Source: Deferribacterales bacterium | Lineage (GTDB): Bacteria; Chrysiogenota; Deferribacteres; Deferribacterales; Geovibrionaceae | Direction of reading: 5' to 3' | Length of the DNA: 64,000 nt | NCBI GenBank assembly: GCA_050251945.1 | Contig: JBFWLW010000001.1 | Coordinates: 224,001-288,000, forward strand | Part shown: positions 22,990 to 52,378 of the stretch, piece after piece | Numbering within the stretch: position 1 is the first letter of the stretch | How the letters are laid out: each line of letters opens with the position of its first letter | Made by a program: the position numbers and the translations under genes | Notes under the pieces: model-generated | The model's database searches: none | Seen by the model: the letters and a program-made list of their open reading frames with translations, nothing else | What the model was told of the DNA's origin: nothing

Positions 22990-23130
22990 CAGGTTGTTGA
23001 CAAACTAAATTTACACAGACTCACATTAGACTGCTTCGGGTTAAAACCCTCGCAGAGACGGTTTTTTGTCTTCGCGAGGAATGCATGCGACGACGCGATC
23101 TAGCATTTTACTGACTTTGCCATCAGTCTG
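22990..23130. mobile_element. MITE-like element copy 1 (141 bp)
   Basis: Imperfect TIRs CAGGTTGTTGACAAA / TTTGCCATCAGTCTG. The reverse complement matches 52238-52378 at 131/141 positions by hand alignment. No ORF. Confidence 0.85.
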
Positions 23131-23140
23131 AGGTCTGTTT

Positions 23141-24397
23141 TCACAACCCTTGTTTTTCTGTTATTCTTTCAATTTCCGCAATTGCTTCATAGATGTTGTA
23201 ACGCGCAGTGTTCTGGTTGCTCTCCGCGCGGGTAAGCATTACTCTGGCATCCAGCAGATCGGTGTTGGTTGCCACCTTCTGTCTGAATCTGTTCTGCGTT
23301 ATGCGGTAGTTCTCTGTCGCTGAATCCGCTTCGCTGTTTGCCGTTTCAAGGCTTGCTTTCGCCAGTGCCAGATTTTCCAGAGCAGTCTTAAGCTGTAGTT
23401 CCATTTGTGATTTGAGGTCGTTCAGTTTGTAAACAAGCGCGTTCTTTGCCGATTCCTGCGCCATGATATTGTTCTTTTTTGTAAAACCGTCGAAAAGATT
23501 CATGTTGACCGATGCGGAAAGCAGCGTTTCCGAATCGTATGTATAATCCCTGTCCGCAGGAGAAACGTCCTGTCCGTATGAATAGAACCCTGCGCCTACG
23601 TCAACTCGCGGCATATATCCTGCTTTGACAGCCTTTTTGGAATACTCTGCCGACTCGATAAGACTGCGGGTATATTTTATCTCACTCCGGTTTTCAAACA
23701 TCTCTTTTTTCAGTTCGTCGTAAGGCGGGGTGTTACCGGAAAGCTGAAACGGCTCAAACACTTCATTTCTGGGGTAGTCGATTCCGGTGAGCTGTTCCAG
23801 AGAGAACACCGCAGTCCTGTAACCGCTGACAGCGGAAAGATTTGTCTGTTTTGCGGATGCCAGTTCCGCTTCGACCTTCAGCACCTCATTTTTTGCGACG
23901 TATCCGACGGAATAGGCAAGGTTTATATCTTTAAGCTGATTTTCAAGCAGAGCAACGGCACGTTCCGCCACTGTTATGTTTTCTTTTGCCTTGAGTATTT
24001 GAATGTAGGCTTTTTTTACGGACAGTTCCATATCCTGTTTCATAGCTGTTTCAGTAAACCTCTCTGCTTCATATTGTTTTTCGGCGGAAAGATAACCGTA
24101 TTTGTCAGCACCGCCGCTGAAAAGGTTATAGGATATTTCAAGTCCGACCTGAGAGAACTGTTCCTCGACGTAATTGAAGGCTTTCTCGGAGCTGTGCTTA
24201 TATGCGTATCCCGCATCCGCTTTCGGAAAATAGCCGCTCTTTTGCGCCTGTGCCTGATATTGTGATGATTTAACTGTGTATCTTTGTGATTCAAGCGAGC
24301 TGTTGTTTTTGAGAGCCGAATCAATTGCGGCATCCAGCGTCATTGCGGAAGCCGAAACGGCTGAAAGAAGAATCATTCCAAGAATATATTTGTTCAT
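23141..24397 (-). CDS. TolC-family outer membrane efflux protein
   Basis: Reads on the minus strand: CAT at 24395-24397 and TCA at 23141; the ORF track's + label is wrong. Signal peptide and two OEP repeats (GYFPKAD, GYMPRVD, TNTDLLDAR). Confidence 0.88.
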   Translation of the reverse strand: MNKYILGMILLSAVSASAMTLDAAIDSALKNNSSLESQRYTVKSSQYQAQAQKSGYFPKADAGYAYKHSSEKAFNYVEEQFSQVGLEISYNLFSGGADKYGYLSAEKQYEAERFTETAMKQDMELSVKKAYIQILKAKENITVAERAVALLENQLKDINLAYSVGYVAKNEVLKVEAELASAKQTNLSAVSGYRTAVFSLEQLTGIDYPRNEVFEPFQLSGNTPPYDELKKEMFENRSEIKYTRSLIESAEYSKKAVKAGYMPRVDVGAGFYSYGQDVSPADRDYTYDSETLLSASVNMNLFDGFTKKNNIMAQESAKNALVYKLNDLKSQMELQLKTALENLALAKASLETANSEADSATENYRITQNRFRQKVATNTDLLDARVMLTRAESNQNTARYNIYEAIAEIERITEKQGL

Positions 24398-24504
24398 ACA
24401 AGCCTCTTATCTTTCGATTATATCAGATACGGACAGTAAACGCAGTGATATTATCAAGGATTAAACGCCTGTTCAACATATTTAAGCCGATTGAAAACCG
24501 GACA

Positions 24505-24942
24505 TTAATAGTTTTCTACAGCTTTGATGTTTCTTATAAATGTTTTGAGCACATTTTTTGCCGTTTCATATTCTTCTCCGGAGATATCTTTCAGGAAGTT
24601 CTCTGAATAAAAGTTTATGATCGGTTCAACGGGAATGAGAGCATCTTTTCCTGCATCCGTGATGAAAACATGCGTAACCCTGCGGTCTTTGCGGTTTTTA
24701 ACCTTTTTTACATATTTTTTCTTCACGAGACGGTTGACAACGCCTGTTGTTGTGGGTTTGTCAAAATAAAGAAGGTGCCCCAGTTCGGTCATATTCAGCC
24801 CGTCCTGCTCGGAAAGGCGAATGAGAACCGCCCACTGTGCCGGAGTGAGGTCAAACTTACGCAGTTTGCCTTCAAACTCTTGTCTGGCAAGTGTTGAAGC
24901 CCTGTTGATCAGAAATGTGAGTGTATCGTCAAGTCCTAACAT
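24505..24942 (-). CDS. MarR-family transcriptional regulator
   Basis: LTPAQWAVL, TTGVVNRLVKK, DRRV..VFITDAG. Confidence 0.92.
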   Translation of the reverse strand: MLGLDDTLTFLINRASTLARQEFEGKLRKFDLTPAQWAVLIRLSEQDGLNMTELGHLLYFDKPTTTGVVNRLVKKKYVKKVKNRKDRRVTHVFITDAGKDALIPVEPIINFYSENFLKDISGEEYETAKNVLKTFIRNIKAVENY

Positions 24943-24948
24943 AGCGCT

Positions 24949-24977
24949 AGATTAGAGATGTGTTTGTTTTTTGTCAA
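24949..24977 (-). promoter_or_regulatory. Sigma70 promoter of marR, probably leaderless transcript
   Basis: Minus strand reads TTGACA-17 nt-TAATCT-6 nt-ATG. Confidence 0.7.
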
Positions 24978-25062
24978 CATATTAGTTGTGTCAATAAAAT
25001 AAATTTATACTATTTCTTTTACTATTTGCATCGCAAACATTACGGTGCTTTTCAATATTCAA

Positions 25063-25091
25063 TTGAAAACAGAACGTATTTTGTGTATTTT
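25063..25091 (+). promoter_or_regulatory. Possible sigma70 promoter for the LOG operon
   Basis: TTGAAA-17 nt-TATTTT. Confidence 0.35.
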
Positions 25092-25109
25092 AATTGTTTC
25101 CTGTAATGG

Positions 25110-25802
25110 ATGGTGTTTATGAAAGATTGTAACGATATCGGCGGAATGCAGTATCTGATTGATGATATGAAGGTGGGTGACACCTGGCGTATATTCAAGA
25201 TTCTCGCCGAATTTGTAGAGGGATTTGAAAAGCTTTCCGGAATTGACCCTGCGGTGACGGTTTTCGGTTCCGCAAGGGTGAAAGAGGGCGACGCGAAATA
25301 TGAACTTGCCAGAGAGATAGGCAGGAAGCTTGCCGCGGAAGGGGTCAGCGTTGTTACAGGCGGCGGTCCCGGTGTTATGGAGGCGGCGAACAGAGGCGCT
25401 TTTGAGGCCGGAGGTCAGTCCATCGGACTTAATATAGAACTTCCGTTCGAGCAGAAAATCAATCCTTATGTAAAAAAGTCAGTGACTTTCGACTATTTTT
25501 TTGTAAGAAAGGTAATGCTGGTCAAGTACGCCAATGCGTTTATAATTCTTCCCGGCGGGTTCGGCACGATGGACGAATTTTTTGAGGCGATAACCCTCAT
25601 TCAGACGGGGAAAATAATACCTTTCCCAATGATACTCGTGGGTACGGAATATTGGAGCGGGCTTTTGGACTGGCTGAAAAACTCTATGCTTGAGAACGGC
25701 TTCATCAAAAAGCAGGATCTTCAGTATATCCAGCTTGTCGATACCCCTGATGAGGTCATAACAATAGTAAGACAGTTTCTGGATACAAACAGGACGGTGT
25801 AG
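25110..25802 (+). CDS. LOG-family (TIGR00730) nucleotide phosphoribohydrolase
   Basis: VFGSAR, TGGGPGVMEAAN, FFVRKVML, PGGFGTMDE. Confidence 0.92.
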   Translation: MVFMKDCNDIGGMQYLIDDMKVGDTWRIFKILAEFVEGFEKLSGIDPAVTVFGSARVKEGDAKYELAREIGRKLAAEGVSVVTGGGPGVMEAANRGAFEAGGQSIGLNIELPFEQKINPYVKKSVTFDYFFVRKVMLVKYANAFIILPGGFGTMDEFFEAITLIQTGKIIPFPMILVGTEYWSGLLDWLKNSMLENGFIKKQDLQYIQLVDTPDEVITIVRQFLDTNRTV

Positions 25803-25803
25803 C

Positions 25804-26472
25804 ATGAAATTATATGACCTGCACACGCACACGACATTCAGCGACGGAGCGCTTATCCCCGCCGAATCGGTACGCAGGGCAAAAACGGACGGCTATGGCG
25901 GCATGGCTATTACAGACCATGCGGACGAGTCCAATTATTTGCTTATATTGGAGAACCAGCTCCGTTTCAAAGAACAGGTGAACGCTAAGAACGATGATTT
26001 CAAGGTCATAATCGGTCTTGAGCTGACCCATGTCAACCCCGACAGGATAGGCGAACTCACGGTTAAGGCGCGCAAAGCGGGCGCAGACATTATTGTGGTA
26101 CACGGCGAGACCATAGTCGAACCCGTGGAAGAGGGTACAAACCTTGCTGCCGTTGAAGCCGGGGTGGATATCCTGGCACATCCGGGGCTTATAACTGAAG
26201 ATGTTATCAGAAAAGGCATCGCTAAAGGCGTTTTTTTCGAGATATCAACCCGCAAAGGACACAGCATCACCAACGGACACGTTGCAAAAACAGTGCTGGA
26301 ACTTGGCGGCGAACTTGTTATAAATAACGATTATCATGCACCCGGCGACAGAGTGAGCTTTGAACAGGCAAAAAGAATCCTTGCAGGAGCAGGGCTCAAC
26401 AATGAACAAATTGAGAAAGTAATTAATAATAATAAAGTTCTTTTTGACAGACTTTACGGAGGAAGAAAGTGA
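25804..26472 (+). CDS. PHP-domain phosphoesterase (histidinol-phosphatase-like)
   Basis: DLHTHT.FSDG, ITDH, VVHGET, ILAHPG, NDYH. Confidence 0.85.
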   Translation: MKLYDLHTHTTFSDGALIPAESVRRAKTDGYGGMAITDHADESNYLLILENQLRFKEQVNAKNDDFKVIIGLELTHVNPDRIGELTVKARKAGADIIVVHGETIVEPVEEGTNLAAVEAGVDILAHPGLITEDVIRKGIAKGVFFEISTRKGHSITNGHVAKTVLELGGELVINNDYHAPGDRVSFEQAKRILAGAGLNNEQIEKVINNNKVLFDRLYGGRK

Positions 26473-27047
26473 GCAATAGAAAACCTGTTATTGACATCGA
26501 AGAAGAACCTATTGATAAGGTTGAGCATTTTTTAGCAAGAAACCTTAAGAAAATGGTTGTAGGGCTTGTAGCCCTTCTTGTTCTGTTCGTGCTTGGTTAT
26601 ACGTTCACAAAAATGAACAAATCCAAAGACACTATGCTGGTTAACAGAGTCGGTATGCTTGAGCTTACCGCTATAATGAACAACTACGAAGCTTCAAAAG
26701 TTGCTGAATACAGCAAATCCGCATCCGAATTCAAAAATGCATCCGACTACATAAACCTGCGCTCAGCAGAGATGTACGTTCAGGGTAAAAATATCAAAGC
26801 CGCTGACGAGATGCTGGCAAAATCCGGCGGTGAAATGAAAGAACTTGCCGACAGTCTTAAAGCGGATATCGAAGGTCAGGGTGTTGACCCCAAAGCCTAC
26901 ATAAACTCCGGTAAACTCGGTTCAGTATGGTATTACAGAGCTTGTCTCGCAGCCGCCGGCGCGGACAAAGAGAAACTGATGAAAGAGTTTGAAACTGCAT
27001 ATCCCGAAAGCGAACTTCTGAAACAGCTTAAAAGGTGGAATGGCTGA
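26469..27047 (+). CDS. Single-TM periplasmic helical protein (TPR/YfgM-like)
   Basis: One N-terminal TM helix, helical remainder, overlapping start and stop with neighbours. Confidence 0.55.
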   Translation: MSNRKPVIDIEEEPIDKVEHFLARNLKKMVVGLVALLVLFVLGYTFTKMNKSKDTMLVNRVGMLELTAIMNNYEASKVAEYSKSASEFKNASDYINLRSAEMYVQGKNIKAADEMLAKSGGEMKELADSLKADIEGQGVDPKAYINSGKLGSVWYYRACLAAAGADKEKLMKEFETAYPESELLKQLKRWNG

Positions 27048-28783
27048 TGAAGAAGGTTTTAAGCGGTAATGAAGCATTCGCCCGCGCGGCATACGAAGCG
27101 GGCGCGGGTGTCGTCAGTTCTTATCCCGGGACACCCAGTACAGAGATAACTGAGAACGCTGCACACTATAAAGAGATATACACCGAATGGGCGACTAACG
27201 AAAAAGTCGGTCTTGAGGTTGCCATCGGCGCCAGCCTTGGCGGAAAAAGAGCTATGTCCTGCATGAAGCACGTCGGGCTTAACGTTGCAGCAGACCCGCT
27301 TATGACCCTTTCATACACGGGGGTTAATGCAGGTCTCGTCGTAATCGTTGCTGACGATCCCAACATGTACAGCTCGCAGAACGAACAGGACAGCAGGCAT
27401 TACGCCCGCTTCGGCAAGGTGCCTATGTTTGAACCCTGCGACAGTCAGGAAGCGAAACAGTTTACCAAAGACGGGTTCGCACTTTCCGAGGAATACTGTA
27501 CGCCTGTTCTTGTACGCTCAACCACAAGAATATCCCACGTTCAGACAATAGTTGAACTTGAAGACAGAGCTGAGGCACCAAAATTTGCACCTGAAAATAA
27601 TATCTCCAAATGGGTCATGATCCCGGCAAATGCAAGGAAGAGACACAGGTTTGTAGAGAACAGACTTGAACTTCTCACAGAACTTGCCGAGAGTGAAAAA
27701 TATAACAAAATAACCATGAGAGACAAGACGATAGGTATTGTATGCTCAGGTGTTGCCTACACTTATGTCAGAGAGGCTGTGCCAGAAGCATCAACACTTA
27801 AACTTGACCTCGCATGGCCGCTCCCTATGAAAAAGATAGCAAAATTCGCCGCATCCGTTGATAAGATGTATGTGGTCGAAGAGCTTGATAAATTCTATGA
27901 AACCGAAATAAAGGCAGCAGGAATTGCAGTTGAAACCCTTGAAAGGGATGTCTGCGGAGAGCTTTCCGTTGACGCTGTTCGCGAACTCTTCGGACTTCCC
28001 CCCGTTGAGGCGGATGTGGATACCACTCTTCCGTTCCGTCCGCCCAATATGTGTCCCGGCTGTTCCCACAGAGGAATTTTCTATGCCATTAGCAGACTGA
28101 AACTGTTTGTAACGGGCGACATCGGCTGTTACACCCTCGGTCTTCTTCCGCCTCTTCAGGCTATCAATACGACAGTCTGCATGGGCGCAAGTATCGGCAT
28201 GGCGCACGGTCTGGACAAAGCCACAGACGATATGTCAAAAAAATCCGTCGCTGTTATAGGCGACTCCACATTCCTGCACACAGGTATAAACTCTCTGGTG
28301 AACACTGTTTACAATCAGGGTCACTCAACGGTTATCATCCTTGACAACACCATCACCGGTATGACCGGACACCAGCCCAACGCAGGCTCCGGTAAGGATA
28401 TTCACGGCAACCCCACGCCTAAGATAGACTTTGCGGCGATCTGCAAGGCCGTGGGCGTTAAAGAGGAGAACATCCGCGTTATCGACCCGTTTGACATTGC
28501 AAACGCTATGGAAGTGCTTAAAGAGGAAACGTCCAAGCCTGAGCCCAGCGTTATCATCACGAACAAGCCCTGCATCTTCGCTGACAGAACCGTCATTGAA
28601 GAACCTTATTTCATACACGAGGACAAATGCAGCGGGTGCCGCGTATGCACTAAGCTAGGCTGTCCCGCGATAGCCTGGAACGCCGAAAAACGCATTGCGC
28701 TTATCGACGAAAACCTCTGCACCGGATGCCATCTCTGCATCAAAGTATGCAAATTCGGCGCTATTGAGCAAAGGAGCAAATGA
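27035..28783 (+). CDS. iorA: Indolepyruvate:ferredoxin oxidoreductase alpha subunit
   Basis: YPGTPSTEI, MKHVGLNVAAD, CPGCSH, GDIGC, GDSTF, C-terminal 2x[4Fe-4S]. Confidence 0.95.
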   Translation: MEWLMKKVLSGNEAFARAAYEAGAGVVSSYPGTPSTEITENAAHYKEIYTEWATNEKVGLEVAIGASLGGKRAMSCMKHVGLNVAADPLMTLSYTGVNAGLVVIVADDPNMYSSQNEQDSRHYARFGKVPMFEPCDSQEAKQFTKDGFALSEEYCTPVLVRSTTRISHVQTIVELEDRAEAPKFAPENNISKWVMIPANARKRHRFVENRLELLTELAESEKYNKITMRDKTIGIVCSGVAYTYVREAVPEASTLKLDLAWPLPMKKIAKFAASVDKMYVVEELDKFYETEIKAAGIAVETLERDVCGELSVDAVRELFGLPPVEADVDTTLPFRPPNMCPGCSHRGIFYAISRLKLFVTGDIGCYTLGLLPPLQAINTTVCMGASIGMAHGLDKATDDMSKKSVAVIGDSTFLHTGINSLVNTVYNQGHSTVIILDNTITGMTGHQPNAGSGKDIHGNPTPKIDFAAICKAVGVKEENIRVIDPFDIANAMEVLKEETSKPEPSVIITNKPCIFADRTVIEEPYFIHEDKCSGCRVCTKLGCPAIAWNAEKRIALIDENLCTGCHLCIKVCKFGAIEQRSK

Positions 28784-29352
28784 TGAAACTGGATATACTC
28801 ATGGTAGGTGTGGGCGGACAGGGTACCGTCCTTTCCAGCAACATCGTGTGTGATGTTGCCTTGGCAGCGGGATACGACGTTAAAAAGAGCGAGATTCACG
28901 GTATGGCGCAAAGGGGCGGCAGTGTCGTTACCCACATACGCATAGGCGAAACGGTTGATTCGCCGACCATCCCACTCAAAAGTGCAGATATTGTAGTTTC
29001 GTTTGAAAGAATGGAATTTTTAAGATATTCTGAATATATTTCGGATAACACTACGCTTATTCTTAATACGCAGATGATACTTCCACCCTCTGTGGCGGAT
29101 GGTGCGGCGGAATATCCGCAGAACAAAGTTGATTCTGTTAAGTCAAAATTCAGCAAAGTGTACGAAATTGACGCCATATCCAAGGCGATAGAGCTTGGCA
29201 ATCAGAAGATTGCCGGCATGGTGGTTCTGGGTATTCTCGCGAAATCGGTTCCTTTCGCAAAAAAGGTATGGGAACAGGCAGTTAAAGACCGCGTCCCCCC
29301 GAAGACCATTGAACTGAATCTTAAAGCATTCGATACCGGATATAACTATTAA
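28780..29352 (+). CDS. iorB: Indolepyruvate:ferredoxin oxidoreductase beta subunit
   Basis: GVGGQG, SEIHGMAQRGGSV. Confidence 0.94.
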   Translation: MMKLDILMVGVGGQGTVLSSNIVCDVALAAGYDVKKSEIHGMAQRGGSVVTHIRIGETVDSPTIPLKSADIVVSFERMEFLRYSEYISDNTTLILNTQMILPPSVADGAAEYPQNKVDSVKSKFSKVYEIDAISKAIELGNQKIAGMVVLGILAKSVPFAKKVWEQAVKDRVPPKTIELNLKAFDTGYNY

Positions 29353-29374
29353 TAACTACTGACGGAGGTGTGGT

Positions 29375-30280: not shown

Positions 30281-30314
30281 AACCGCTTAAAGCGGGCATT
30301 TTGAAATAAAGTGC

Positions 30315-30343: not shown

Positions 30344-30351
30344 CATCCTCA

Positions 30352-32468: not shown

Positions 32469-35400
32469 ATGTCTGGAATCAAACTGACTGATGTAGCGAA
32501 AAAACTTGGAAAAAACGAAGACGAGATTCTGAATAACGTACAAGGAGCAGGACACAATATGGCTGACGACGGCACCATTTCCGATGACGCCGTTAAGTCG
32601 CTCGGGCTTGACCCGAAACACCTGCATCTTGACCGCAGACAGGAGATGCTTAAAAAAGCTATGGAACGCCATAAAAAATATCCGAAATCCAGAGAAGTTA
32701 AAATGGGTTCTGGAGATAATGAAGCAGTCAGAAAGATTTCCAAACAAGAGCTTATCGATAGAAAGAAGAAACTTGAGAATACAATTCGTAATGTTGACGA
32801 AATAAGAGAAACTACACGCGATGATGCTGCACAGGCTCCTGTTGAAGAGAGAGCTGCTGCAAATTCTTCACCCGCTGCGGAAGAGGTTAAAACCGTGAAA
32901 CCGGAAGTTCAGGAAACTGCCAAACCTGCTGCTCAGTCTGAATCCGCTGAACCTGTTAAACAGGCGCAGCCCCAGCAGAATACACAGGCTCCACGTCCCC
33001 AAAGAGAGGATCGTCCCCAATATACCCGCGATGACAACCGCCAACAGGGCGACAGACCGTCTTATCAGGGAGACCGCCCGCAATATAACCGCGAAGGTGG
33101 AGACAGACCTCAGTATAACAGAGACAACCGCCCCCAAGGCGACAGACCGCCTTATCAGGGTGACCGCCCGCAGTACAACCGCGAAGGCGGAGACAGACCC
33201 CAATACAACAGAGACAACCGCCCCCAAGGCGACAGACCGCCTTATCAGGGAGACCGTCCTCAATATAACAGGGATAACCGCCCCCAAGGCGACAGACCTC
33301 CCTATCAGGGCGACCGTCCTCAATACAACAGAGACAACCGTCCCCAAGGCGACAGACCTCCCTATCAGGGAGACCGTCCTCAATATAACAGGGATAACCG
33401 CCCCCAAGGCGACAGACCTCCCTATCAGGGTGATCGTCCTCAATATAACAGGGATAACCGCCCCCAAGGCGACAGACCTCCTTATCAGGGAGACCGTCCG
33501 CAATATAACAGGGATAACCGTCCCCAAGGTGACAGACCTCCTTATCAAGGTGATCGTCCCTATAACAGAGACAACCGCCCCCAAGGCGACAGACCTCCTT
33601 ATCAGGGCGACCGTCCCTATAACAGAGACAACCGTCCCCAAGGTGACAGACCTCCCTATCAGGGCGACCGTCCCTATAACAGAGACAATCGTCCTCAGGG
33701 TGACAGACCGCCTTATCAGGGCGACCGTCCCTATAACAGAGACAACCGTCCCCAAGGTGACAGACCTCCTTACCGTCCGCAGGGCGGCGGCGCAGGCAGA
33801 CCTCAGATGGAGGAAAAATCCATAGCTGAGCTTGCTGAAAAGAAAAAAGTAATGCGCGAGAAACCCAAAACGGAGACTGTCGAAACCAAAAAGGTAAAGG
33901 CTAAGGCTGCCGTTGCTAAAAAAGAGAAAAACATCCATAAGGGTGTTGATGAAGGCATCGAGCTTTTTGAACTTGAAAAGCAGATACTGTCTTCAGATGG
34001 TGCTCCCGTTGTTGAAGCTGGAAAAGAAGTTGTTGAAGAAGCACCAAGAGAAAAAAGAACTGACAACAGAAATAACCGTAGACCTTTCAAAAAACAGAAG
34101 GGCAGAAGAGAGGAAAAACAAGAGCCTGTTATTGTGCGCCCGTCAAGCGTTCAGATAGGCGAGAATGTTGTTGTTTCCGAATTTGCCAAGCTTATCGGAG
34201 TTAAAGCGACTGAAGTTATCAAAAAACTTATCGGTCTCGGCGTTATGGCGAGCGTTAATCAGGCGATTGACGGCGACACGGCGACTCTGCTTGCTTCTGA
34301 ATACGGTATAGACGTTAAAGTGAAATTCCTTACGGAAGACGACCTTATCCCCAAACACGAGGACAAGGACGAAGACCTTGTTTCCAGACCGCCTATCGTT
34401 ACCGTCATGGGTCACGTTGACCACGGTAAAACATCACTGCTCGACAGAATCCGTCTTACGGCTGTTGCAGAGGGCGAAGCAGGCGGTATCACACAGCACA
34501 TCGGTGCGTATGAGGTCAAGCTTGAACACGGAACTATAACTTTCCTTGATACACCCGGTCACGAGGCGTTCACAACCCTTCGTGCAAGAGGTGCCAGCGT
34601 TACGGATATAGTTATACTTGTTGTTGCGGCAGACGACGGCGTTATGCCCCAGACAAAAGAAGCTATTGACCACGCGAAAGCGGCAGGCGTTAAAATTATT
34701 GTTGCCATCAACAAAATAGATAAAGAAAATGCCAACCCTGATATGGTTCGTAACCAGCTTTCCGAATACGGACTTATTTCGGAAGACTGGGGAGGCGATA
34801 CACAGTTTCAGGAGATTTCGGCAAAACAGAACATCAAAGTTGATGCACTGCTTGAAAGAGTGCTTCTTGAAGCTGAACTGCTTGAACTTAAAGGCAATCC
34901 CAACGCTCCGGCAGAGGGTATCGTTATCGAATCAAAACTGGACAAACAGAAAGGTCCGGTTGCGACAGTGCTTATCAACAGAGGTACACTCACCAGAGGC
35001 GATAACTTTGTTGTCGGTACCGAATCAGGCAAAGTAAGGGCGATGTTCAACTATAAAGGCGTTGCCATTAAGGAAGCCGGACTTTCAGTTCCCGTTGAGA
35101 TAATGGGATTTTCCGGCGTTCCCGAATCAGGCGACAGATTCATCGTTACAGCTGATGAAAAAACAGCAAGAGCAATCGCAGAACTGCGTACTGAAGAGAA
35201 ACGCAAACACACGCTGGCGGAAAAAACCTCTGTCAGTCTTGCGGATATCTTCAACAGAATAAAAGAGGGCAAGCTGAAAGAACTGAATATCGTGCTGAAA
35301 GCCGACGTTCAGGGTTCACTGGAAGCTCTGAAATCCTCTCTGATAAAACTTTCCAACCCCGAAGTGAAGATAAATATCATTTCAAGCGGTGTGGGCGGTA

Positions 35401-35936
35401 TTTCGGAGAACGATATCATCCTCGCAACTGCATCCAGCGCTATTATCATCGGTTTCAACGTCCGTCCCGGACAGCAGGCGAAAGCCAAAGCAGAGCAGGA
35501 GGGCGTTGAGCTTAACCTTTACTCTGTAATCTATCAGGCGATAGACGATGTTAAACAGGCGATGGAAGGTATGCTTGACCCGTCGCGCAAAGAGGAAGTT
35601 CTCGGTCGTGCGGAAGTTCGTCAGGTGTTCTCTGTGCCGAAAATCGGCAAGATCGCAGGTTCATACGTTACCGAGGGCAAGGTTGCCAGAAATGCCAGCG
35701 TCAGGGTCATCAGAGACTCTATCGTTATCTATGACGGCAAACTCCACTCTCTTAAACGTTTCAAAGACGATGCGAAAGAGGTTGCACAGGGTTACGAGTG
35801 CGGTATCGGAGTTGAAAAATACAACGATATCAAAGAAGGAGACGTTTTCGAGTTCTATATCATGGTTGAAGAAAAAAGAACTCTTGAAGATGTCCGCAGA
35901 GATTCAGAAGCAAAAGAAAAGGAAGAGAGCAAATAA
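32469..35936 (+). CDS. infB: Translation initiation factor IF-2 with long repetitive N-terminal region
   Basis: [37 protein letters not shown]. Confidence 0.98.
33033..33773 (+). repeat. Tandem coding repeat in infB, 12 units of [16 protein letters not shown] sequence
   Basis: Unit starts at 33033, 33123, 33213, 33273, 33333, 33393, 33453, 33513, 33570, 33627, 33684, 33741 (periods 90, 60, 57 nt). Confidence 0.95.
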
Positions 35937-37648: not shown

Positions 37649-39787
37649 ATGGAAAAAAATATTCAGACTTTCCCTATTCGCCTGCGTGAAGACGCCGACG
37701 AAATAATTTTTGAAACCGGCTGGAAAGCCAAGCAGGCAAACGGCAGTGTATGGATCAAACAGGGCGGCACAATCGTCCTCGTTACTGCTGTCGGTCAGAA
37801 AAAAGCAGCTGCAAATCAGGGATTTTTTCCCTTGACTGTCAACTACTTTGAAAAATTCTACGCAGCGGGCAAGATTCCCGGCGGTTTCTTTAAAAGAGAG
37901 GCTAAACCCTCCGATAAAGAAACGCTCATTTCCCGTCTGATAGACAGACCGCTGCGCCCTATGTTTCCCGACGGTTTCAGAAACGAAACTCAGGTGATAG
38001 CTACTGTCGTTTCATATGACGGCGTTAACTCGCCCGATATGCTTGCGATGAACGCTGCCAGTGCCGCGCTTATGATATCCGATATTCCCTTCAACGGACC
38101 TATAGCCGGTGTCAAAGTGGGCAGACTGGACGGTAAGCTTCTCATAGATCCCCCCTCAAACCGCGTCAGCGAGCTTGACATCAGCATGACCCTCGCCGGT
38201 ACTGACGATGCCATCGTTATGGTTGAGGCAGGGATGAACAACGTTTCCGAAGAAGAGGTTGTTGAAGCTCTTCAGTTCGGACACAAACACATCCGTATGC
38301 TCGTTGCTCACCAGCTTGAAATGGTTAAAGCGCTTGGCAAAGAGAAATTTGCCTATGAAAGCTTCGCCGTTCCCGCTGACGATGTCAACGACGCTATGGC
38401 TGTTATCGGCGACAAGATCAAGGCTGCACTGGTTATTCCTCAGAAACTTGAGAAATACGCAGCTATCGACAAGCTTGAAGAGGAATTCCTTGTACTCATG
38501 AAAGAAAAAGTGGGTGAAGAGGAATACGCCGCTAAAGAAGGTCACTTCAAAAATATCTACCACGAAGTTGAGAAAACAGCTTTCAGAAACTTCACAATAG
38601 ATTCTAAAACAAGGATCGACGGACGTTCTTACACAGAAGTCCGCCCCATAGACATTGAGCACGCTCTTCTGCCTATGACCCACGGTTCCGCTCTCTTCAC
38701 CAGAGGCGAAACTCAGGCGCTGGTGGTTGCAACGCTTGGTACAAAAATGGATACACAGATCCTTGACAACATCGACGGCGAAGGCAGAAAACGCTTTATG
38801 CTGCACTATAACTTCCCGCCTTTCTGCGTTGGCGAGGTCGGCTTCATGAGAGGACCCGGCAGACGCGAGATCGGTCACGGTGCGCTTGCTGAAAGAGCTC
38901 TGTCATACGTTCTGCCCGATGAAGACAACTTCCCCTATACCGTGCGCATCGTTTCTGAGGTTCTTGAATCAAACGGTTCATCCTCTATGGCGACAGTGTG
39001 CGGCGGATGCCTCAGCCTTATGGATGCAGGCGTTCCGGTCAAAGCTCCCGTTGCGGGCGTTGCTATGGGTCTTATCTATGAAGGAAAAGACAGATACGCA
39101 GTCCTCAGCGACATCATGGGAACTGAAGACCACCTTGGCGATATGGACTTCAAAGTTGCAGGTACCAAAGACGGTATCACCGCGCTTCAGATGGACATCA
39201 AAATAGAAGGTCTTTCAAAAGAACTTCTTGAGACAGCTCTTGAGCAGGCGAAAGCTGCAAGACTTCATATTCTCGGCAAAATGATCGACGTTCTGCCCGA
39301 ACCTAAAGAAGACCTTGCTCCTACAGCCCCCAGATACCTCACCATGAAGATCAACCCCGAGAAGATCGGTATGGTTATCGGACCGGGAGGAAAGATGATC
39401 AAATCCATCATCGAGGAATCAGGCGCGTCCATAGACATCGACGATACTGGCAAGATAAACATCTTTGCTGTAAGCAAAGACGCTATAACCATCGCTCAGA
39501 GACGTGTGAACGAGATCGTTGCAGAAGTCGAAGATGGTGCTGTTTACGATGCTGTTGTCAAAAAGATAATGGAATACGGCGCATTCGTGGAGCTTATCCC
39601 CGGAATCGAGGCACTGCTTCACGTTTCCCAGTACAGCAACGAACGCATTAACAAGATTGAGGACTACCTCAGTGTCGGTGACAGCGTTCAGGTGAAAGTT
39701 GTGGGCAAAGATCCCAACGGACGCTACAAACTCTCCAGAAAAGTTCTTCTCTCCGCAGAAAAACCTGAGGAAAAAGAAGAAAATTAA
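37649..39787 (+). CDS. pnp: Polyribonucleotide nucleotidyltransferase
   Basis: FFPLTV, RREIGHG, SNGSSSMA, GDMDFKVAG, KH and S1 domains. Confidence 0.98.
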   Translation: MEKNIQTFPIRLREDADEIIFETGWKAKQANGSVWIKQGGTIVLVTAVGQKKAAANQGFFPLTVNYFEKFYAAGKIPGGFFKREAKPSDKETLISRLIDRPLRPMFPDGFRNETQVIATVVSYDGVNSPDMLAMNAASAALMISDIPFNGPIAGVKVGRLDGKLLIDPPSNRVSELDISMTLAGTDDAIVMVEAGMNNVSEEEVVEALQFGHKHIRMLVAHQLEMVKALGKEKFAYESFAVPADDVNDAMAVIGDKIKAALVIPQKLEKYAAIDKLEEEFLVLMKEKVGEEEYAAKEGHFKNIYHEVEKTAFRNFTIDSKTRIDGRSYTEVRPIDIEHALLPMTHGSALFTRGETQALVVATLGTKMDTQILDNIDGEGRKRFMLHYNFPPFCVGEVGFMRGPGRREIGHGALAERALSYVLPDEDNFPYTVRIVSEVLESNGSSSMATVCGGCLSLMDAGVPVKAPVAGVAMGLIYEGKDRYAVLSDIMGTEDHLGDMDFKVAGTKDGITALQMDIKIEGLSKELLETALEQAKAARLHILGKMIDVLPEPKEDLAPTAPRYLTMKINPEKIGMVIGPGGKMIKSIIEESGASIDIDDTGKINIFAVSKDAITIAQRRVNEIVAEVEDGAVYDAVVKKIMEYGAFVELIPGIEALLHVSQYSNERINKIEDYLSVGDSVQVKVVGKDPNGRYKLSRKVLLSAEKPEEKEEN

Positions 39788-39791: not shown

Positions 39792-39811
39792 AAGGGAGCT
39801 TCGGCTCCCTT
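39792..39811 (+). repeat. Left copy of the duplicated terminator hairpin (target duplication)
   Basis: AAGGGAGCTTCGGCTCCCTT is identical to 39996-40015. Confidence 0.92.
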
Positions 39812-39995
39812 CAGACTGATGACAAAGTCGAAAAAGACGAGATCGCTTCGTCGCTTTATTCGACAAATAGTTTAAAGTGGACTCATTCAGCCTTCGGCTA
39901 GTGCTTCTCGCGAAGACGTAAGTTACTGTCATTGCGAGGAAGCCTCAGGCTGACGCGGCAATCTCATTGATTTTAACCAGTTTATCAGCAACCTG
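39812..39995. mobile_element. MITE-like element copy 2 (184 bp, variant interior)
   Basis: TIRs CAGACTGATGACAAA / TTTATCAGCAACCTG; 20-bp perfect direct repeat on both sides; internal palindromes homologous to the other copies. Confidence 0.85.
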
Positions 39996-40019
39996 AAGGG
40001 AGCTTCGGCTCCCTTTTTT
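39996..40019 (+). terminator. Intrinsic terminator of pnp (right copy of the duplication)
   Basis: GGGAGC-TTCG-GCTCCC followed by TTTTTT. Confidence 0.88.
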
Positions 40020-46734: not shown

Positions 46735-46759
46735 TATTTTCCTGTTCAGGAGGTGCTGT

Positions 46760-47215
46760 ATGATAAAATATGGCGGTATGGCTGTCATGGCTGAGGACGT
46801 CCGGACTTCACTGGCTTTTTACAGAGATATTCTCGGGCTGGAACTGATGATGGATAACGGAAATGAACATGTTATGTTTAAATGCGGTGTTGCGCTCTGG
46901 AAGAAGGATGCGGCGCATAAGCTTATCTTCGGTTCTGTCTGCGACGGCAGGTCGTCGATGTTTGAGCTTTTCTTTGAAAGCGACGATATCAACGGTGATT
47001 ATGAACGGCTGTCAAGGGCATCAAAAGTCGTTAATCCACTTGAAGAACAGCCGTGGGGACAGCTTACGTTCAGGATATCAGATCCCGACGGGCATCTGAT
47101 AGAGGTGGGTGAAAAGCTGTCTGGTACCATCAAACGGTTCAGAGAATCCGGAATGACCGACGATGAAATAAGCTCCAGAACACACGTGGCAAAGGATATG
47201 CTGGATTCCCTTTAA
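46760..47215 (+). CDS. VOC/glyoxalase-family protein
   Basis: SLAFYRDILGL, EQPWGQ..FRISDPDGHLIEV; ATG after AGGAGG. Confidence 0.88.
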   Translation: MIKYGGMAVMAEDVRTSLAFYRDILGLELMMDNGNEHVMFKCGVALWKKDAAHKLIFGSVCDGRSSMFELFFESDDINGDYERLSRASKVVNPLEEQPWGQLTFRISDPDGHLIEVGEKLSGTIKRFRESGMTDDEISSRTHVAKDMLDSL

Positions 47216-47223
47216 AATCACTC

Positions 47224-47260
47224 AACAGCTCCGTTTCCTGCGGGGCTGTTCTCTTTTTTT
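47224..47260 (+). terminator. Intrinsic terminator
   Basis: AACAGCTCCG/CGGGGCTGTT stem followed by CTCTTTTTTT. Confidence 0.75.
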
Positions 47261-47262
47261 AC

Positions 47263-47291
47263 TTGAAGTACAAACCCACCCGCTGTATTAT
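47263..47291 (+). promoter_or_regulatory. Sigma70 promoter for the pgeF operon
   Basis: TTGAAG-17 nt-TATTAT. Confidence 0.55.
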
Positions 47292-47319
47292 GACCTTAAA
47301 ATAGGAGCAATTTGCCTTT

Positions 47320-48060
47320 ATGACCAATATAATCATAAATTCATATAAAACAGTTCCCGAAAATGTCGACTGTTTTGTCACAACCCGCCACGGCGGATAC
47401 AGCAGAGGGGACTACGGCAATTTCAACCTTGCCGTGAGCACAGCGGAAGACCACCGGATTGCGATGAAAAACATTGAACTTCTGAAAAATGAATTTCACC
47501 TTTCAAAGCTCGTCAATCTCAATCAGGTTCATGGAAATATGGTCTATGAAGTGACATCTGACAATTATACCGATATAATGTACAGAGAGGGTGACGGACT
47601 TTTCACTTTGGAAAGCGAAATAGCCCTTGGCGTTCTCACCGCAGACTGCTATAACGTTTTTCTCGCCGGAAAAAAAGCTGTCGCCGCTCTGCATTGCGGA
47701 CATAAATCCGTTTCGTCGGATATTATGGGTGAGGCTATAAAACTTTTTGTCAAACATGGAGATTTTCCCGTGTTTGCCGGTATAGGTCCGGGGATATCAT
47801 GCGCCAATTACGAGATAGGTCCGGAACTGGCGGATACATTCGGCAAAATATGCCACGACAGTATCGTGGTTAAGGACGGAAAACTTTATCTGAGCCTGCG
47901 CACCGTGATAGAGCAAAATCTCACAAAGGCGGGTATCAGACACATTGAGCATCTGCGTAACTGCACCTTTGAAGACGAAAGCCTGTATTCTCACCGCAGA
48001 GACAAAGGCGTGACAGGGCGTATGATGGGGGTTATCGTAAGGAGAAGCGATGTTCGCTGA
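47320..48060 (+). CDS. pgeF: YfiH/PgeF laccase-domain protein
   Basis: TTRHGG, NQVHG, LTADC, ALHCG, YSHRR. Confidence 0.88.
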   Translation: MTNIIINSYKTVPENVDCFVTTRHGGYSRGDYGNFNLAVSTAEDHRIAMKNIELLKNEFHLSKLVNLNQVHGNMVYEVTSDNYTDIMYREGDGLFTLESEIALGVLTADCYNVFLAGKKAVAALHCGHKSVSSDIMGEAIKLFVKHGDFPVFAGIGPGISCANYEIGPELADTFGKICHDSIVVKDGKLYLSLRTVIEQNLTKAGIRHIEHLRNCTFEDESLYSHRRDKGVTGRMMGVIVRRSDVR

Positions 48061-48727
48061 CAGACTTGCCGAGGTCAGAAAAAATATAGACGCCGCCATG
48101 AAAAAGGCAGGCAGAACTGACAGCGTTGAAGTCGTTGCCGTGAGCAAATATTATCCGGCGGAGGCTATTCTTGATGCATATGGATGCGGACACAGAATAT
48201 TCGGTGAAAGCCGTGTTCAGGAAGCCGTTGAAAAGAAAGAGATACTTAAAGATCTGACGGAGCTTGAGCTTCATTTCATAGGGCATCTTCAGACCAATAA
48301 GGTGAAGTATCTGGAAGATATATTCGGGCTGATACATTCAGTTGACAGCGAAAGGCTGGCGGATGAACTTAACAGGTATTTCAATAAGATAGACCGTGTT
48401 CAGGATATTCTCGTTCAGGTGAACATAGCGAACGATCCTGACAAATCCGGAGTTACAGGAGAAGAGGCGGAAAGCCTTTGCAACGCAGTGAAAGATATGC
48501 CCAACCTGAACCTGAGAGGGCTTATGATGATACCTCCTCTGACAGATAATGAGGAAAAAAACAGGAAATATTTTACTGCGATGAAAGAACTTTTTGATAA
48601 ACTGTCTGTCAAAAATGAGAATACCATGGATATTTTGTCTATGGGAATGAGCGATGATTACACAATAGCTGTTGAAGAGGGCAGTACGATGGTGCGCATA
48701 GGCACGGCTCTTTTCGGCGGACGATGA
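48050..48727 (+). CDS. yggS: PLP homeostasis protein YggS
   Basis: VAVSKY, FGESRVQE, HFIGHLQTNK, SMGMSDD, VRIGTALFG. Confidence 0.95.
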   Translation: MFADRLAEVRKNIDAAMKKAGRTDSVEVVAVSKYYPAEAILDAYGCGHRIFGESRVQEAVEKKEILKDLTELELHFIGHLQTNKVKYLEDIFGLIHSVDSERLADELNRYFNKIDRVQDILVQVNIANDPDKSGVTGEEAESLCNAVKDMPNLNLRGLMMIPPLTDNEEKNRKYFTAMKELFDKLSVKNENTMDILSMGMSDDYTIAVEEGSTMVRIGTALFGGR

Positions 48728-48740
48728 TAAAGGGGAAACA

Positions 48741-49565
48741 ATGGCTATTATTTCAATGCTGATAAAATCTTATCTGGTCGTGCTGCTCTTGCGCAGTGTC
48801 ATGACCAGACAGGAGCTTTATTTCAACCCCTTCGGTAAGATGGTGGCGAAGCTCACCGACCCCCTCATGGAAAAATTGCTTAAACTGAACAAAAAGAACG
48901 CCGACAGGTCAACCCTTCTGTTCATTCTGCTTGCGACGGCGCTTACGGCTCTGCTGTATTATGCCATGGGCGGAATGAGCCTCGCGATATCTGCGTTCTT
49001 TGCCATATCAGACATGCTTAACTTCCTGATGATGTTCTACATTGTCAGCATAATACTCGGCATTTTTGCCGGAAACAGCCGCATGTCATATTTCTCTATG
49101 TATTTTAACCGCCTCGGCTCTTTTTGGGTCAATGCGGTGCGGGCGATTCTGCCTATACGGTCAAACGCCGTGGCTGTCCCTGCAATTGTTTTTGTCTTTG
49201 TCTTTTTTACCGTTGTAAACGGAGCAGTCATTCTCTTTATGCAGCACGGGACAGACTTTACGTTTGTTTCATCCAGTCTTATTTCCTCGATGTTCATGTC
49301 CCTTAAATCCGGTCTGTTGTCAATTGTCAGCCTGCTCGGTATCTATATCTGGGTGATAATCATCCGCGCACTGATGAGCTGGGTCAGTCCCGACCCTTCA
49401 AATCCTGTTGTGCAGACGATAATAGCCCTGACAGATCCTGTGCTGGTTCCTTTCAGCCGGATAATTCCCCCGCTGGGACCTGTGGACATCAGCCCTATGA
49501 TTCTGATATTCCTGCTGTATTTTCTTAAGAATATGCTGCTTAGGCTTATCGGAATGCTCCTTTAA
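48741..49565 (+). CDS. Extended YggT-family membrane protein
   Basis: C-terminal IIRALMSWV.PDP.NP...TDP..P...IIPPLG.VDISP; a second YggT-like segment at the N-terminus (NPF..MVAKLTDP). Confidence 0.8.
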   Translation: MAIISMLIKSYLVVLLLRSVMTRQELYFNPFGKMVAKLTDPLMEKLLKLNKKNADRSTLLFILLATALTALLYYAMGGMSLAISAFFAISDMLNFLMMFYIVSIILGIFAGNSRMSYFSMYFNRLGSFWVNAVRAILPIRSNAVAVPAIVFVFVFFTVVNGAVILFMQHGTDFTFVSSSLISSMFMSLKSGLLSIVSLLGIYIWVIIIRALMSWVSPDPSNPVVQTIIALTDPVLVPFSRIIPPLGPVDISPMILIFLLYFLKNMLLRLIGMLL

Positions 49566-50566
49566 TGGAATTCAGCAAGCTCAAATACGTTTACATCGGC
49601 ACAGCACTTATATTTCTTGTCGGAGTGACAGGAACACTCGGTTATATGCATATTGAGCATGCGAATATGCTCGATTCACTGTATATGACAATTATCACCA
49701 TGGCCACAGTCGGTTATGGCGAGATATTCCCTCTGTCGGATGCGGGTAAGATATTCACTATCTTGATCATCATATCCGGCACAGGTACGGTTGCATACAC
49801 GGCGACACAATTTATCGACTACGTTGTCACAGGCGACCTTACCAATTTTTTCGGGAGAAAAAAGATGAACCACATCATCGACAACATGAACAGCCACTAT
49901 ATCCTTTGCGGTTTCGGACGTATGGGAAGGATAATTGCGGGACTGCTCAGAGAGAACAATGTGCCGTTTGTCATAATCGACCCCGAAGACAGGGCGAGCG
50001 AATCCGCGGAAGAAAAATACGTGTTTGTTACAGGCGACGCAACCCATGATGCGGTTCTTAAAAAAGCGGGTGTGATGCGTGCGAAAGGACTTATCACCGT
50101 CGTTGATACGGATGTGAAGAACCTTTACATCGTCCTTACCGCCAAGGGGCTTAACAGAAATCTTTACGTCGTCGCAAAAGTTGCGCAGGAAGACGCCGCA
50201 ACAAAGTTTGAGTGGGCGGGAGCCGACAAGATTGTTTCGCCGTATACCATCGGCGGGCAGAGCATTGCTTACAGCATCATAAAACCATATGTAACGGATT
50301 TCCTCTCCATGGCGATGGGAAATCAGGAATACGGCATCATGGTTGAAGAGGTTATGATACATGAAGGCAATGTTCTGGAAAACACTTCAATTGTTGATTC
50401 CAACGTCCGCAAGATCGGTATCATTATTGTCGCCATAAGAAAAAGCGACGGAGGGTTTATTTATAACCCCGGACCCAACGAGGTCATCAGAGCGAACGAC
50501 ACCCTTATCGCACTTGGCAGAAAGGGTGATTTTGAGGCTCTGAATAAACATTTAAAAAGAGGATAA
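49565..50566 (+). CDS. Potassium channel with TrkA-N/TrkA-C (RCK) domains
   Basis: Selectivity filter TVGYG, CGFGRMG Rossmann motif, C-terminal TrkA-C. Confidence 0.92.
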   Translation: MEFSKLKYVYIGTALIFLVGVTGTLGYMHIEHANMLDSLYMTIITMATVGYGEIFPLSDAGKIFTILIIISGTGTVAYTATQFIDYVVTGDLTNFFGRKKMNHIIDNMNSHYILCGFGRMGRIIAGLLRENNVPFVIIDPEDRASESAEEKYVFVTGDATHDAVLKKAGVMRAKGLITVVDTDVKNLYIVLTAKGLNRNLYVVAKVAQEDAATKFEWAGADKIVSPYTIGGQSIAYSIIKPYVTDFLSMAMGNQEYGIMVEEVMIHEGNVLENTSIVDSNVRKIGIIIVAIRKSDGGFIYNPGPNEVIRANDTLIALGRKGDFEALNKHLKRG

Positions 50567-50567
50567 C

Positions 50568-51542
50568 ATGTGGGTTTTCAGAATATTATATGCAGTTTTC
50601 ATTATGGCGGCATTCGTGCTGGTCAGAGACACGCTGGGCATAGGCATGCCGCAGGCTGTTCTTTATTCTATGGGCGTTATTTTCGCAATAGTTTTCATAG
50701 AAACACTTATCGCAGATATCAAAAGCTATAAGTTCTATGGCGGGCTTGCCGGTGCTGTTGTCGCTATTATTGCCGCGTATTTTATAGCGTCTATATTTGA
50801 GACGTATTTCAATAACGATTCTCTGCGTCTGGCATTCTATTTCTTCGCGCTTTATCTCGGCGTTGCGACTGGTCAGAAATTTTCATGGATAATTGAGAAC
50901 GTACTTTCAAGACTTATGGCAAAACAGCCGAAACAGATAAAATTCAGCGCGTCTTCAAAAGTGCTTGATACATCAACACTTATAGACGGTCGTATGGCAG
51001 ATATCGTCGATACAGGACTTATAGAGGGCGGGCTGGTCATTCCTACCTTCATCCTGAAAGAACTCCAGAATATCGCTGATTCCCACGATCACCTGCGCAG
51101 ACAGAAGGGCAGACGCGGGCTTGATGTTCTGAAACGCTTACAGGAGCAAACAGCCGTGCCTGTTGAGATAAACAACACTGATTTTCTGGAAATAGGCACT
51201 GTTGACGAAAAACTTGTTGCCTTGGCGAAAAAGCTGAAAGCTGATATAATAACAACAGATTTTAACCTTCTGAAAGTTGCTGAAATACAGAATATCAAAG
51301 TTCTGAACATAAATACGCTGTCAATGGCGATGCGCCAGTCTGTTCTTCCGGGTGAGGAATTTGAGATAAGCGTTGTTAAAGAGGGTAAGGAATCCAATCA
51401 GGGTGTCGGCTATCTCGACGACGGCACGATGGTTGTTGTGGAAAACGGGCGCAAATTGATTGGTAAAACAGTAAAAGTTAACGTTACAAGTCTCCTTCAG
51501 ACAGAATCGGGACGTATAATATTTACTAAGGTGAAATATTGA
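50568..51542 (+). CDS. PIN/TRAM-domain membrane protein (YacL family)
   Basis: LDTSTLIDGR, GRRGLD, TTDFNL, QGVGYLDDGTMVVVE. Confidence 0.92.
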   Translation: MWVFRILYAVFIMAAFVLVRDTLGIGMPQAVLYSMGVIFAIVFIETLIADIKSYKFYGGLAGAVVAIIAAYFIASIFETYFNNDSLRLAFYFFALYLGVATGQKFSWIIENVLSRLMAKQPKQIKFSASSKVLDTSTLIDGRMADIVDTGLIEGGLVIPTFILKELQNIADSHDHLRRQKGRRGLDVLKRLQEQTAVPVEINNTDFLEIGTVDEKLVALAKKLKADIITTDFNLLKVAEIQNIKVLNINTLSMAMRQSVLPGEEFEISVVKEGKESNQGVGYLDDGTMVVVENGRKLIGKTVKVNVTSLLQTESGRIIFTKVKY

Positions 51543-52219
51543 ATATAACCGCAATAATACCTGCCGCCGGAATGGGCAAACGTTTCGGCGGCGACGTTAA
51601 AAAGCAGTTTTTCGAGGTTCTCGGGCATACTGTTCTTTATTATACTCTTACGGCTCTGAACCGTGCCTATCCTTTCAAAGAGTTTATCCTCGGCGCCGAT
51701 CCCGACGATTTTTATTTTTTATACTCACAGCTTTCAATGGCGGATATTAAGAATTATCAGCTTGTTCAGGGCGGCGGAGAGCGGTATGAGACAGTTTATA
51801 ACTGTCTGAAAGCGGTCACGACGGACTACGTTTTAATACACGATGCCGTGAGACCGTTCGTGACAGAAGATATCGTGCGAAACGTTGCGGATGCCGCAAA
51901 AGATACAGGTGCGGCGATATGTGGTCTGCCTGTGCGTGATACTTTGAAAAAGATATCCGGCAGTTTCGTTGAAAAAACTGTAAGCAGAGACGAATACGTT
52001 CTTTCACATACCCCGCAGATATTTAAAACATCACTTCTTAAAAAAGCGGTGGAAAATGCCGATGAACGGGGAATTGTTATCACCGATGAGGCTCAGGCTA
52101 TGGAGCTTTTCGGAGTTCGTGTGAAGTGGGCTATGTCTCTGTCTGACAACATAAAAATAACCTTTCTGAACGATATGGATATGGCGGAAGGGCTGGTTCG
52201 TAAATATTTCGGGCAATAA
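51539..52219 (+). CDS. ispD: 2-C-methyl-D-erythritol 4-phosphate cytidylyltransferase
   Basis: PAAGMGKRF..KQF, IHDAVRP, TPQIF, TDEA, NIKIT. Confidence 0.92.
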   Translation: MNITAIIPAAGMGKRFGGDVKKQFFEVLGHTVLYYTLTALNRAYPFKEFILGADPDDFYFLYSQLSMADIKNYQLVQGGGERYETVYNCLKAVTTDYVLIHDAVRPFVTEDIVRNVADAAKDTGAAICGLPVRDTLKKISGSFVEKTVSRDEYVLSHTPQIFKTSLLKKAVENADERGIVITDEAQAMELFGVRVKWAMSLSDNIKITFLNDMDMAEGLVRKYFGQ

Positions 52220-52220
52220 A

Positions 52221-52237
52221 AGGGGCGCGAAGCCCCT
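52221..52237. repeat. Left copy of the duplicated hairpin (target duplication)
   Basis: AGGGGCGCGAAGCCCCT versus AGGGGCGTGAAGCCCCT at 52379-52395 (1 mismatch). Confidence 0.88.
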
Positions 52238-52378
52238 CCGACTCATGACAAAGTCAGTAAAATGCGAGATCGCGTCGTCGCATGCGCTCCTCGCGAAGAC
52301 AAAAGAACGTCTCTGCGAGGGTTTTAACCCGAAGCAGTCTAATGTGAGTCTGTGTAAATTTAGTTTGTCAACAACCCA
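52238..52378. mobile_element. MITE-like element copy 3 (141 bp)
   Basis: Inverted near-copy of 22990-23130 (10 mismatches), flanked by a 17-bp hairpin direct repeat. Confidence 0.87.

Follow-up and report, generated by a model that had tools for sequence, protein, structure and literature searches.

The 64,000-nucleotide stretch analysed here (the window; positions 224,001 to 288,000 of contig JBFWLW010000001.1, C1 below, in the 3.07 Mb assembly GCA_050251945.1 of a Deferribacterales bacterium, G000 below) contains three copies of a family of non-coding miniature elements. In each, the ends of an insertion sequence (IS) of the IS1182 family enclose an inverted pair of hairpins of the repetitive extragenic palindrome (REP) type. 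The elements were likely moved in trans (probability about 0.88) by an IS1182-family DDE transposase, which is predicted to join them at a terminator hairpin's 5' feet, so that the whole hairpin is copied to both sides. The members have common ends and lie between duplicated hairpins; sites without them exist in related genomes, their REP interiors have a pool of free copies as source, and hairpins are re-used in sister species. Hairpin targeting by IS1182 elements and terminator-targeting miniatures were already known. What sets this family apart is the shell with a foreign REP cargo.

The three elements lie at 22990-23130, 39812-39995 and 52238-52378 and measure 141, 184 and 141 bp, exactly as the original prediction had placed and sized them. 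The two 141-bp copies are mutually inverted with 10 mismatches in 141 positions, also as predicted; copy 2, 3' of pnp, represents a different subfamily. All three begin 18-28 bp past a stop codon (pilT-family ATPase, pnp and ispD), which bears out the predicted location right after gene 3' ends. Imperfect terminal inverted repeats of about 15 bp had also been claimed. The ends are present, with a left-to-right identity within one element of only 11/15, 11/15 and 9/15, since the left end and the right end each belong to a fixed type of their own. The flanking hairpin is duplicated with 20/20 identity at pnp, 16/17 at ispD and 14/18 (decayed) at pilT. The features are listed below; type A is one of two REP types distinguished here, and G002 is a genome of the same genus.

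22990..23130, + strand: copy 1, 141-bp miniature; left end 22990-23005, right end 23115-23130; convergent neighbours are a pilT-family gene (21885-22961, +) and a TolC-family gene (23141-24397, -)
22972..22989, unstranded: left hairpin copy of copy 1, decayed, 14/18 against the right copy; the hairpin is single in G002
23133..23150, unstranded: right hairpin copy of copy 1, overlapping the stop of the TolC-family gene
23028..23059, - strand: type-A REP of copy 1, first of the inverted pair
23068..23101, + strand: type-A REP of copy 1, second of the pair
39812..39995, - strand: copy 2, 184 bp; left end 39980-39995, right end 39812-39827; pnp lies at 37649-39787 (+)
39792..39811, unstranded: left hairpin copy of copy 2, perfect 20-bp duplication
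39996..40015, unstranded: right hairpin copy of copy 2, 20 bp, with the following T-run retained
39840..39917, - strand: type-A REP of copy 2 with a nested insert in its inner loop
39855..39902, - strand: nested unit of copy 2, 48 bp, net gain 44 bp
39928..39964, + strand: type-A REP of copy 2, second of the pair
52238..52378, - strand: copy 3, 141 bp, subfamily of copy 1; convergent neighbours are ispD (51539-52219, +) and the gene of a putative NAD(P)-binding oxidoreductase (52402-53037, -; weak family matches only)
52221..52237, unstranded: left hairpin copy of copy 3, 16/17 duplication
52379..52395, unstranded: right hairpin copy of copy 3
52267..52300, - strand: type-A REP of copy 3
52309..52340, + strand: type-A REP of copy 3

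Empty sites with a single hairpin, which the original prediction expected in relatives, were found. At each of the three window sites G002 carries a single hairpin. Its pnp site measures 93 bp against 297 bp here, a difference accounted for exactly by the element and one hairpin (297-184-20); the ispD site measures 27 bp against 182 bp and the pilT site 16 bp against 179 bp. The pnp and ispD sites are likewise empty in G004 and G005, where the pilT site holds a different, decayed element; in G006 the pnp and ispD sites carry free REP pairs lacking the ends. One low-depth contig from DNA run X2 also shows the empty pnp site and skips exactly 204 bp, the element plus one hairpin. X2 comes from the same study as X1, which may be the source sample. 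None of the RNA runs gave useful coverage of the locus: the share was 0.20 for X3, presumably RNA, and at most 0.08 for the others.

The family was surveyed by running a profile of the ends over the genome, with gene positions taken from crude open reading frame (ORF) calls. The predicted genome-wide abundance is real: 89 paired-end elements of 107-238 bp were found, 48 of them 139-142 bp long, and 83 combine one typical left-type with one typical right-type end. End matches of at least 15 bits numbered 30 on one strand of contig C1 and none in the shuffle. A flanking direct repeat of at least 14 bp at 75% identity or more is present at 71/89 elements (26 perfect; lengths 14-33 bp, mode 20), and at none of 1000 random windows. 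Each of the 22 perfect in-register repeats examined comprises a GC hairpin with 0-2 extra bases at either flank. The junction has a T/A preference (52/89). Most elements (68/77) lie within 60 bp of a stop codon and only 5/89 overlap an ORF. Convergent genes flank 46/82 elements compared with 199/1204 gaps (odds ratio 8, p 1e-17), and the two orientations to the gene are about equally frequent (18 vs 16). A separate orientation tally left four elements unclassified. By a crude census, 66/260 terminator-like sites, roughly a quarter, are filled. At least five T follow the gene-side hairpin copy in 3/82 cases and the far copy in 55/82. The gene-side copy thus usually has no U-run, and the element is therefore predicted to be transcribed within the 3' untranslated region (UTR), with the far copy keeping termination. 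The original claim of terminator targeting that spares genes stands as to the target, a terminator-like hairpin being duplicated at 71/89; the harmlessness is unproven.

Two further kinds of arrangement were seen. A relic of about 38 bp with end-like tips lies between two decayed hairpin copies in the G000:C4:3327 region (L304) and is possibly an eroded or cargo-less shell. Tandem or fused miniatures occur at G000:C5:33672, C1:187371, C17:36585 and C6:50982-51281; some are joined at a common TGACAAA core, and one pair has a common middle hairpin copy.

A cognate IS was found in the same genus, as foreseen. Among 40 relatives, G002 and G004 have pieces of IS1182 at the ends of contigs, both N-terminal and C-terminal. 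The pieces start and finish with the 16 bp of the miniatures, both ends abut hairpins, and in either genome the left and right IS ends, on different contigs, have one hairpin in common. The full IS carries no REP and makes the same type of hairpin duplication. The protein pieces match DUF772/IS1182 and NF033551, though truncation at contig ends keeps them below the whole-protein cut-off; their identity to the protein of G023, whose near-full copy passes NF033551 (486.6 bits, cut-off 270), is 61% and 77%. ISBspe1 and ISBma2 are among the top plasmid matches of the G023 relative. With a matrix built from full IS ends only, all 89 miniatures score at least 8 bits at both ends. Full elements of 1.57-1.72 kb with the identical end type occur in metagenomes; the end scan found no long composites of 450-6000 bp in this genome. 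The abundance of the family, the cognate IS and the empty sites bear out all three original predictions and support the reading of an IS1182-mobilised miniature.

Other collapsed multi-copy IS (at G000 contig ends and at C3:250178-251737) likewise sit within hairpins, among them a miniature's duplicated hairpin and type-B repeats. Judged from their ends, the IS in the former is presumably IS3-like and that in the latter presumably IS481-like.

Similarity to the IS stops after about 16 bp, and the interior is best read from its sequence as captured REP DNA, not as a deleted IS. REP-type repeats are present in every one of the 89 elements: type A in 79, type B in 8 and both types in 2. The type-A pattern matches 507 times in the genome compared with 10 times in the shuffle: 138 matches lie in paired elements, 48 near single ends and 321 are free, with 107 free inverted dimers. 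Type B has about 60 pattern matches. C or T precedes the GTC head in 464/507 type-A REPs, and the stem covaries strongly (T-A 200 / C-G 168 and T-A 232 / C-G 138 of 380). Diversity is high among free copies (278 distinct of 321), whereas passengers are clonal (78 of 138). That the free pairs are eroded miniatures was ruled out, as 72/75 isolated free pairs have no flanking duplication; the remaining three are decayed miniatures. Type-A REPs number 40 in G001 and 17 in G003, where only two exact end matches each were found. The spacers between end and REP vary by subfamily, which suggests several captures or exchanges.

The 48-bp unit nested in copy 2 has 42 matches in the genome, each of them located in the loop of a type-A REP and some with a further insert or an IS break. 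Free and carried type-A REPs alike serve as hosts, with several variants of the stem, and a second unit, about 47 bp long, is in turn inserted in it. The element that breaks several contigs at the CTAG of the 48-bp unit is one that we take to be IS630-like, by its TA-type junction. Type-A REPs also form long alternating arrays, similar to BIME-2 clusters, at G000:C10:67135-67700 and C10:700-1240.

Occupied hairpins recur between sister genomes. Four of the five full-IS sites in G002 and G004 are occupied by a miniature in this genome (two decayed), and the fifth is occupied in G005. Of 22 sister miniature loci tested, 11 were scorable, six being filled and five empty here; the six filled sites comprise four in opposite orientation, one in the same orientation with other cargo and one inherited. 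At the 66/260 rate the chance of at least 4/5 is 0.017, and that of 10/16 lies below the 0.006 computed for 10/18, with the reservation that related genomes are not independent samples. These patterns are best accounted for by preferred targets that lose their elements and are refilled. Such sharing could also be due to descent, if one ancestral insertion stayed put and only its interior turned over, by replacement with REP pairs or by inversion in place. Both the full-IS sites and the 6/11 filled sister sites agree with that account, as does L312, where the orientation is the same and the cargo is B against A. Palindromic duplications would permit inversion in place, and cargo-only inversions do exist, with the common TGACAAA core as switch point. 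However, the hairpin copies at L295 match within a species and differ between species, which fits insertion after divergence. Near-identical copies at unrelated sites each have their own perfect duplication, and therefore whole elements moved as units; moreover, G002 is empty at three of three window sites. Turnover within resident shells is thus considered unlikely, although it retains more credit than the two explanations considered next.

A different possibility is that the REP pair itself is the mobile unit, moved by a nuclease of its own (an Ssn-like GIY-YIG or a DUF559 protein), with the IS-like ends as passive flanks. Free REPs are indeed more numerous than passengers. In relatives, short GIY-YIG genes are flanked by type A at 5/12 loci examined and by a related repeat at two more, and type-B repeats flank all seven stand-alone DUF559 genes (six in relatives, one in this genome). 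The duplication, however, begins exactly at the IS ends, and the empty-site arithmetic largely refutes the idea; nearly all free pairs lack a duplication, and the full IS makes the same one without any REP. Mobility of the pair would account for the free REPs and not for the shells, and as an explanation of the elements it is very improbable. Least probable of all is a conserved non-coding RNA family at gene ends, despite the strong compensatory change in the REP stem and the predicted co-transcription of the copies. The elements are absent from orthologous sites, which refutes this as their origin; they stand in either orientation to the gene, none of six loci gave an Rfam match at gathering score, and the covariation is a property of the REP, whether free or carried.

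The stand-alone DUF559 gene of this genome (G000:C4:8141-8467; L039:1483-1842) has type-B flanks and a B-type element directly downstream. By analogy, DUF559 with type-B repeats looks like a REP-nuclease cassette parallel to Ssn, and a limited literature search found no paper describing it. No short GIY-YIG gene was found in this genome, nor any PF01797 match to a Y1 transposase that would link the repeats to RAYT/REPIN systems.

For the IS1182-driven account, the most likely course is that the DDE transposase, bound to the two ends, links them to an extruded hairpin at its 5' feet, whereupon repair copies the hairpin (model b of PMC5678879). The target would be recognised as a structure, a cruciform, so that the hairpin sets the length of the duplication; a weak sequence rule at the hairpin foot is suggested by the T/A junction preference. 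REP pairs may have entered shells several times and then been amplified as passengers. The transposase would since have been lost from this genome, leaving the family idle unless the IS returns. The far hairpin copy probably keeps termination. The element would be transcribed as part of the 3' UTR, and the REP pair may there influence the decay of the mRNA. Because the hairpin copies are palindromic, recombination between them could lead to loss or inversion.

Several points weigh against this account. Transposition is inferred from sequence and was never observed. No IS1182 transposase gene or remnant was found in the whole assembly with NF033551, PF05598 and tblastn; the original statement that the window has no transposase thus holds for this family and beyond the window, other transposase families not having been scanned in all window ORFs. 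The assembly is 99.97% complete by markers with multi-copy IS collapsed at contig ends, and none of these collapsed ends shows miniature ends followed by IS DNA. The end scan found no empty shells of 25-80 bp in this genome, and the order of cargo capture is thus not shown. Eighteen of the 89 elements have no clear duplication. Hairpin length follows duplication length (rho 0.83, n=22), a correlation that is partly circular since the hairpin was measured inside the duplication, and the stop-codon distances share the crudeness of the ORF calls. At the 11 listed full-length metagenomic IS loci the flanks match only at L244 and L246/L248, most others having two different hairpins, which may be assembly chimeras or rearrangements.

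The published systems compared here are described from the available portions of the papers cited. IS1272/TnSha1 of the IS1182 family targets hairpins and terminators without a primary-sequence consensus and re-uses its targets (PMC4923244, PMC5678879); both papers credit Siguier 2015 with palindrome targeting in the family, and pathway b in Fig. 13 of PMC5678879 models duplication of a whole stem-loop. The elements described here share 16-bp ends, a DDE transposase, hairpin or terminator targets and repeated target use with IS1182/IS1272. In contrast, IS1272 deletes or replaces the hairpin that the clade studied here duplicates, and unlike IS1182 elements the miniatures are non-autonomous with an interior that is not IS DNA. 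As would be expected if they were IS1182-derived MITEs (short for miniature inverted-repeat transposable elements), they have IS1182 ends, a cognate IS1182-family protein, a short non-coding multi-copy form and filled and empty sites with duplication; they differ in that the interior did not arise by deletion of the parent IS and the cognate transposase was not found in the same assembly. The closest miniature is YPAL/RU-2 of Yersinia, about 170 bp and non-coding, with variable duplications of 3-26 bp at dyad symmetry, filled and empty sites, and a proposed effect on upstream mRNA stability (PMC2229807). YPAL is set apart by description, as the table of that review gives no terminal inverted repeats and the available portions of its text name no cognate IS. 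The available text of the MITE review PMC10969869 mentions neither IS1182 nor YPAL.

Type A resembles the CGTC-tagged REPs in its (C/T)GTC head, its variable-loop hairpin, its inverted pairs and its high extragenic copy number. CGTC REPs are described without a dedicated transposase, and some of their dimers lie inside longer palindromes (PMC3733652). The short single-domain GIY-YIG genes with repeat flanks in relatives, among them one for a 96-aa protein, a putative nuclease, resemble Ssn with its SRM/NTS repeats (PMC11893778). Membership in the SRM repeats of Ssn was ruled out by the published pattern, which matched 0/89 elements and 13 places in the genome. REP-type repeats between IS ends are not described in the portions seen of PMC3733652 or PMC11893778.

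The two ends also occur beyond this genome. A scan of GTDB genomes for both ends 95-125 bp apart, a length range set by the search pattern, gave paired ends at a minimum of 117 loci from many phyla, some matches being due to chance. A duplication of at least 14 bp is present at 71/117 listed loci, a 4-bp CTAG-like one at 8/117. Interiors of the listed loci are unrelated between lineages, and recognisable tagged REP pairs form a minority (six CGTC/SRM-type by pattern, three E. coli-type); REP cargo thus appears common but not universal. Loci L127, L132, L148 and others belong to an enterobacterial family of 140-142 bp, present in Serratia, Dryocola, Scandinavium and Buttiauxella, that has the common end type and perfect terminator duplications; we take its central palindrome to be IHF-like.

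The three E. coli matches are 152-bp REP-linker-REP units, the form of BIME-1. Twenty-five BIME-1 loci chosen by their REP in one Escherichia genome were scored with a matrix from 18 full-IS ends. Both ends reach 8 bits or more at 10/25 (null 0.35%) and one end 12 bits or more at 15/25 (null 0%). Duplicated hairpins enclose 6/25 compared with 1/300 in the null, two of the six being one tandem pair, and the remaining loci are eroded or negative. Between rlmC and artJ, strains 042 and GF43 have a single hairpin and 28 bp between the genes, and strain 720632 and G041 have BIME-1 between two hairpin copies (720632: 198 bp = 28 + 152 + 18). The filled query was covered to 80% in 1702/5426 E. coli genomes; the artJ flank query matched 3/5426, and the empty state was read in two strains only. 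The empty allele could also have arisen by recombination between the copies, and the duplication is shown either way. In the two Escherichia genomes tested no IS1182 scored above the cut-off, the matches being IS5-sized.

BIME-1/RIB is described as an inverted REP pair with a linker, its spread being ascribed to TnpA-REP/RAYT (PMC3333891, PMC2817692). It resembles the present elements in that many copies are 151-152-bp units with ends of IS1182 type, of which some lie between duplicated hairpins and one occupies a site that has empty alleles, but differs in its GTAG-type REPs and the IHF site in the linker. An IHF site as a general feature of the present elements was rejected, the consensus being exact in 1/89 and within one mismatch in 12/89. 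Tentatively, and at slightly less than even odds, it may be proposed that the IS1182-end clade is a general carrier of other systems' REP pairs to terminators and that E. coli BIME-1/RIB is such a carrier: its outer segments would be IS1182 ends, its spread would be due to terminator-duplicating DDE transposition rather than to TnpA-REP alone, and the central IHF site may bend the ends together. A literature search that covered papers other than the classic BIME/RIB articles found no report tying BIME-1 or REP doublets to IS1182 ends; the novelty of the link is uncertain.

Apart from the elements, the window encodes translation initiation factor IF-2 at 32469-35936 (1155 aa), the long N-terminal region of which is encoded with tandem repeats of 57, 60 and 90 nt.

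The added value of this family lies in how cleanly shell and cargo can be told apart. It would provide one concrete route by which REPs of the CGTC type, said to lack a transposase, are amplified, and roughly a quarter of the terminator-like sites of this genome are predicted to have gained a structured 3' UTR insert. The carrier proposal offers a testable origin of E. coli BIME-1 and of its placement where transcription units end. A transposase able to recognise the shape of a hairpin while sparing termination would be a useful gene-sparing insertion tool.

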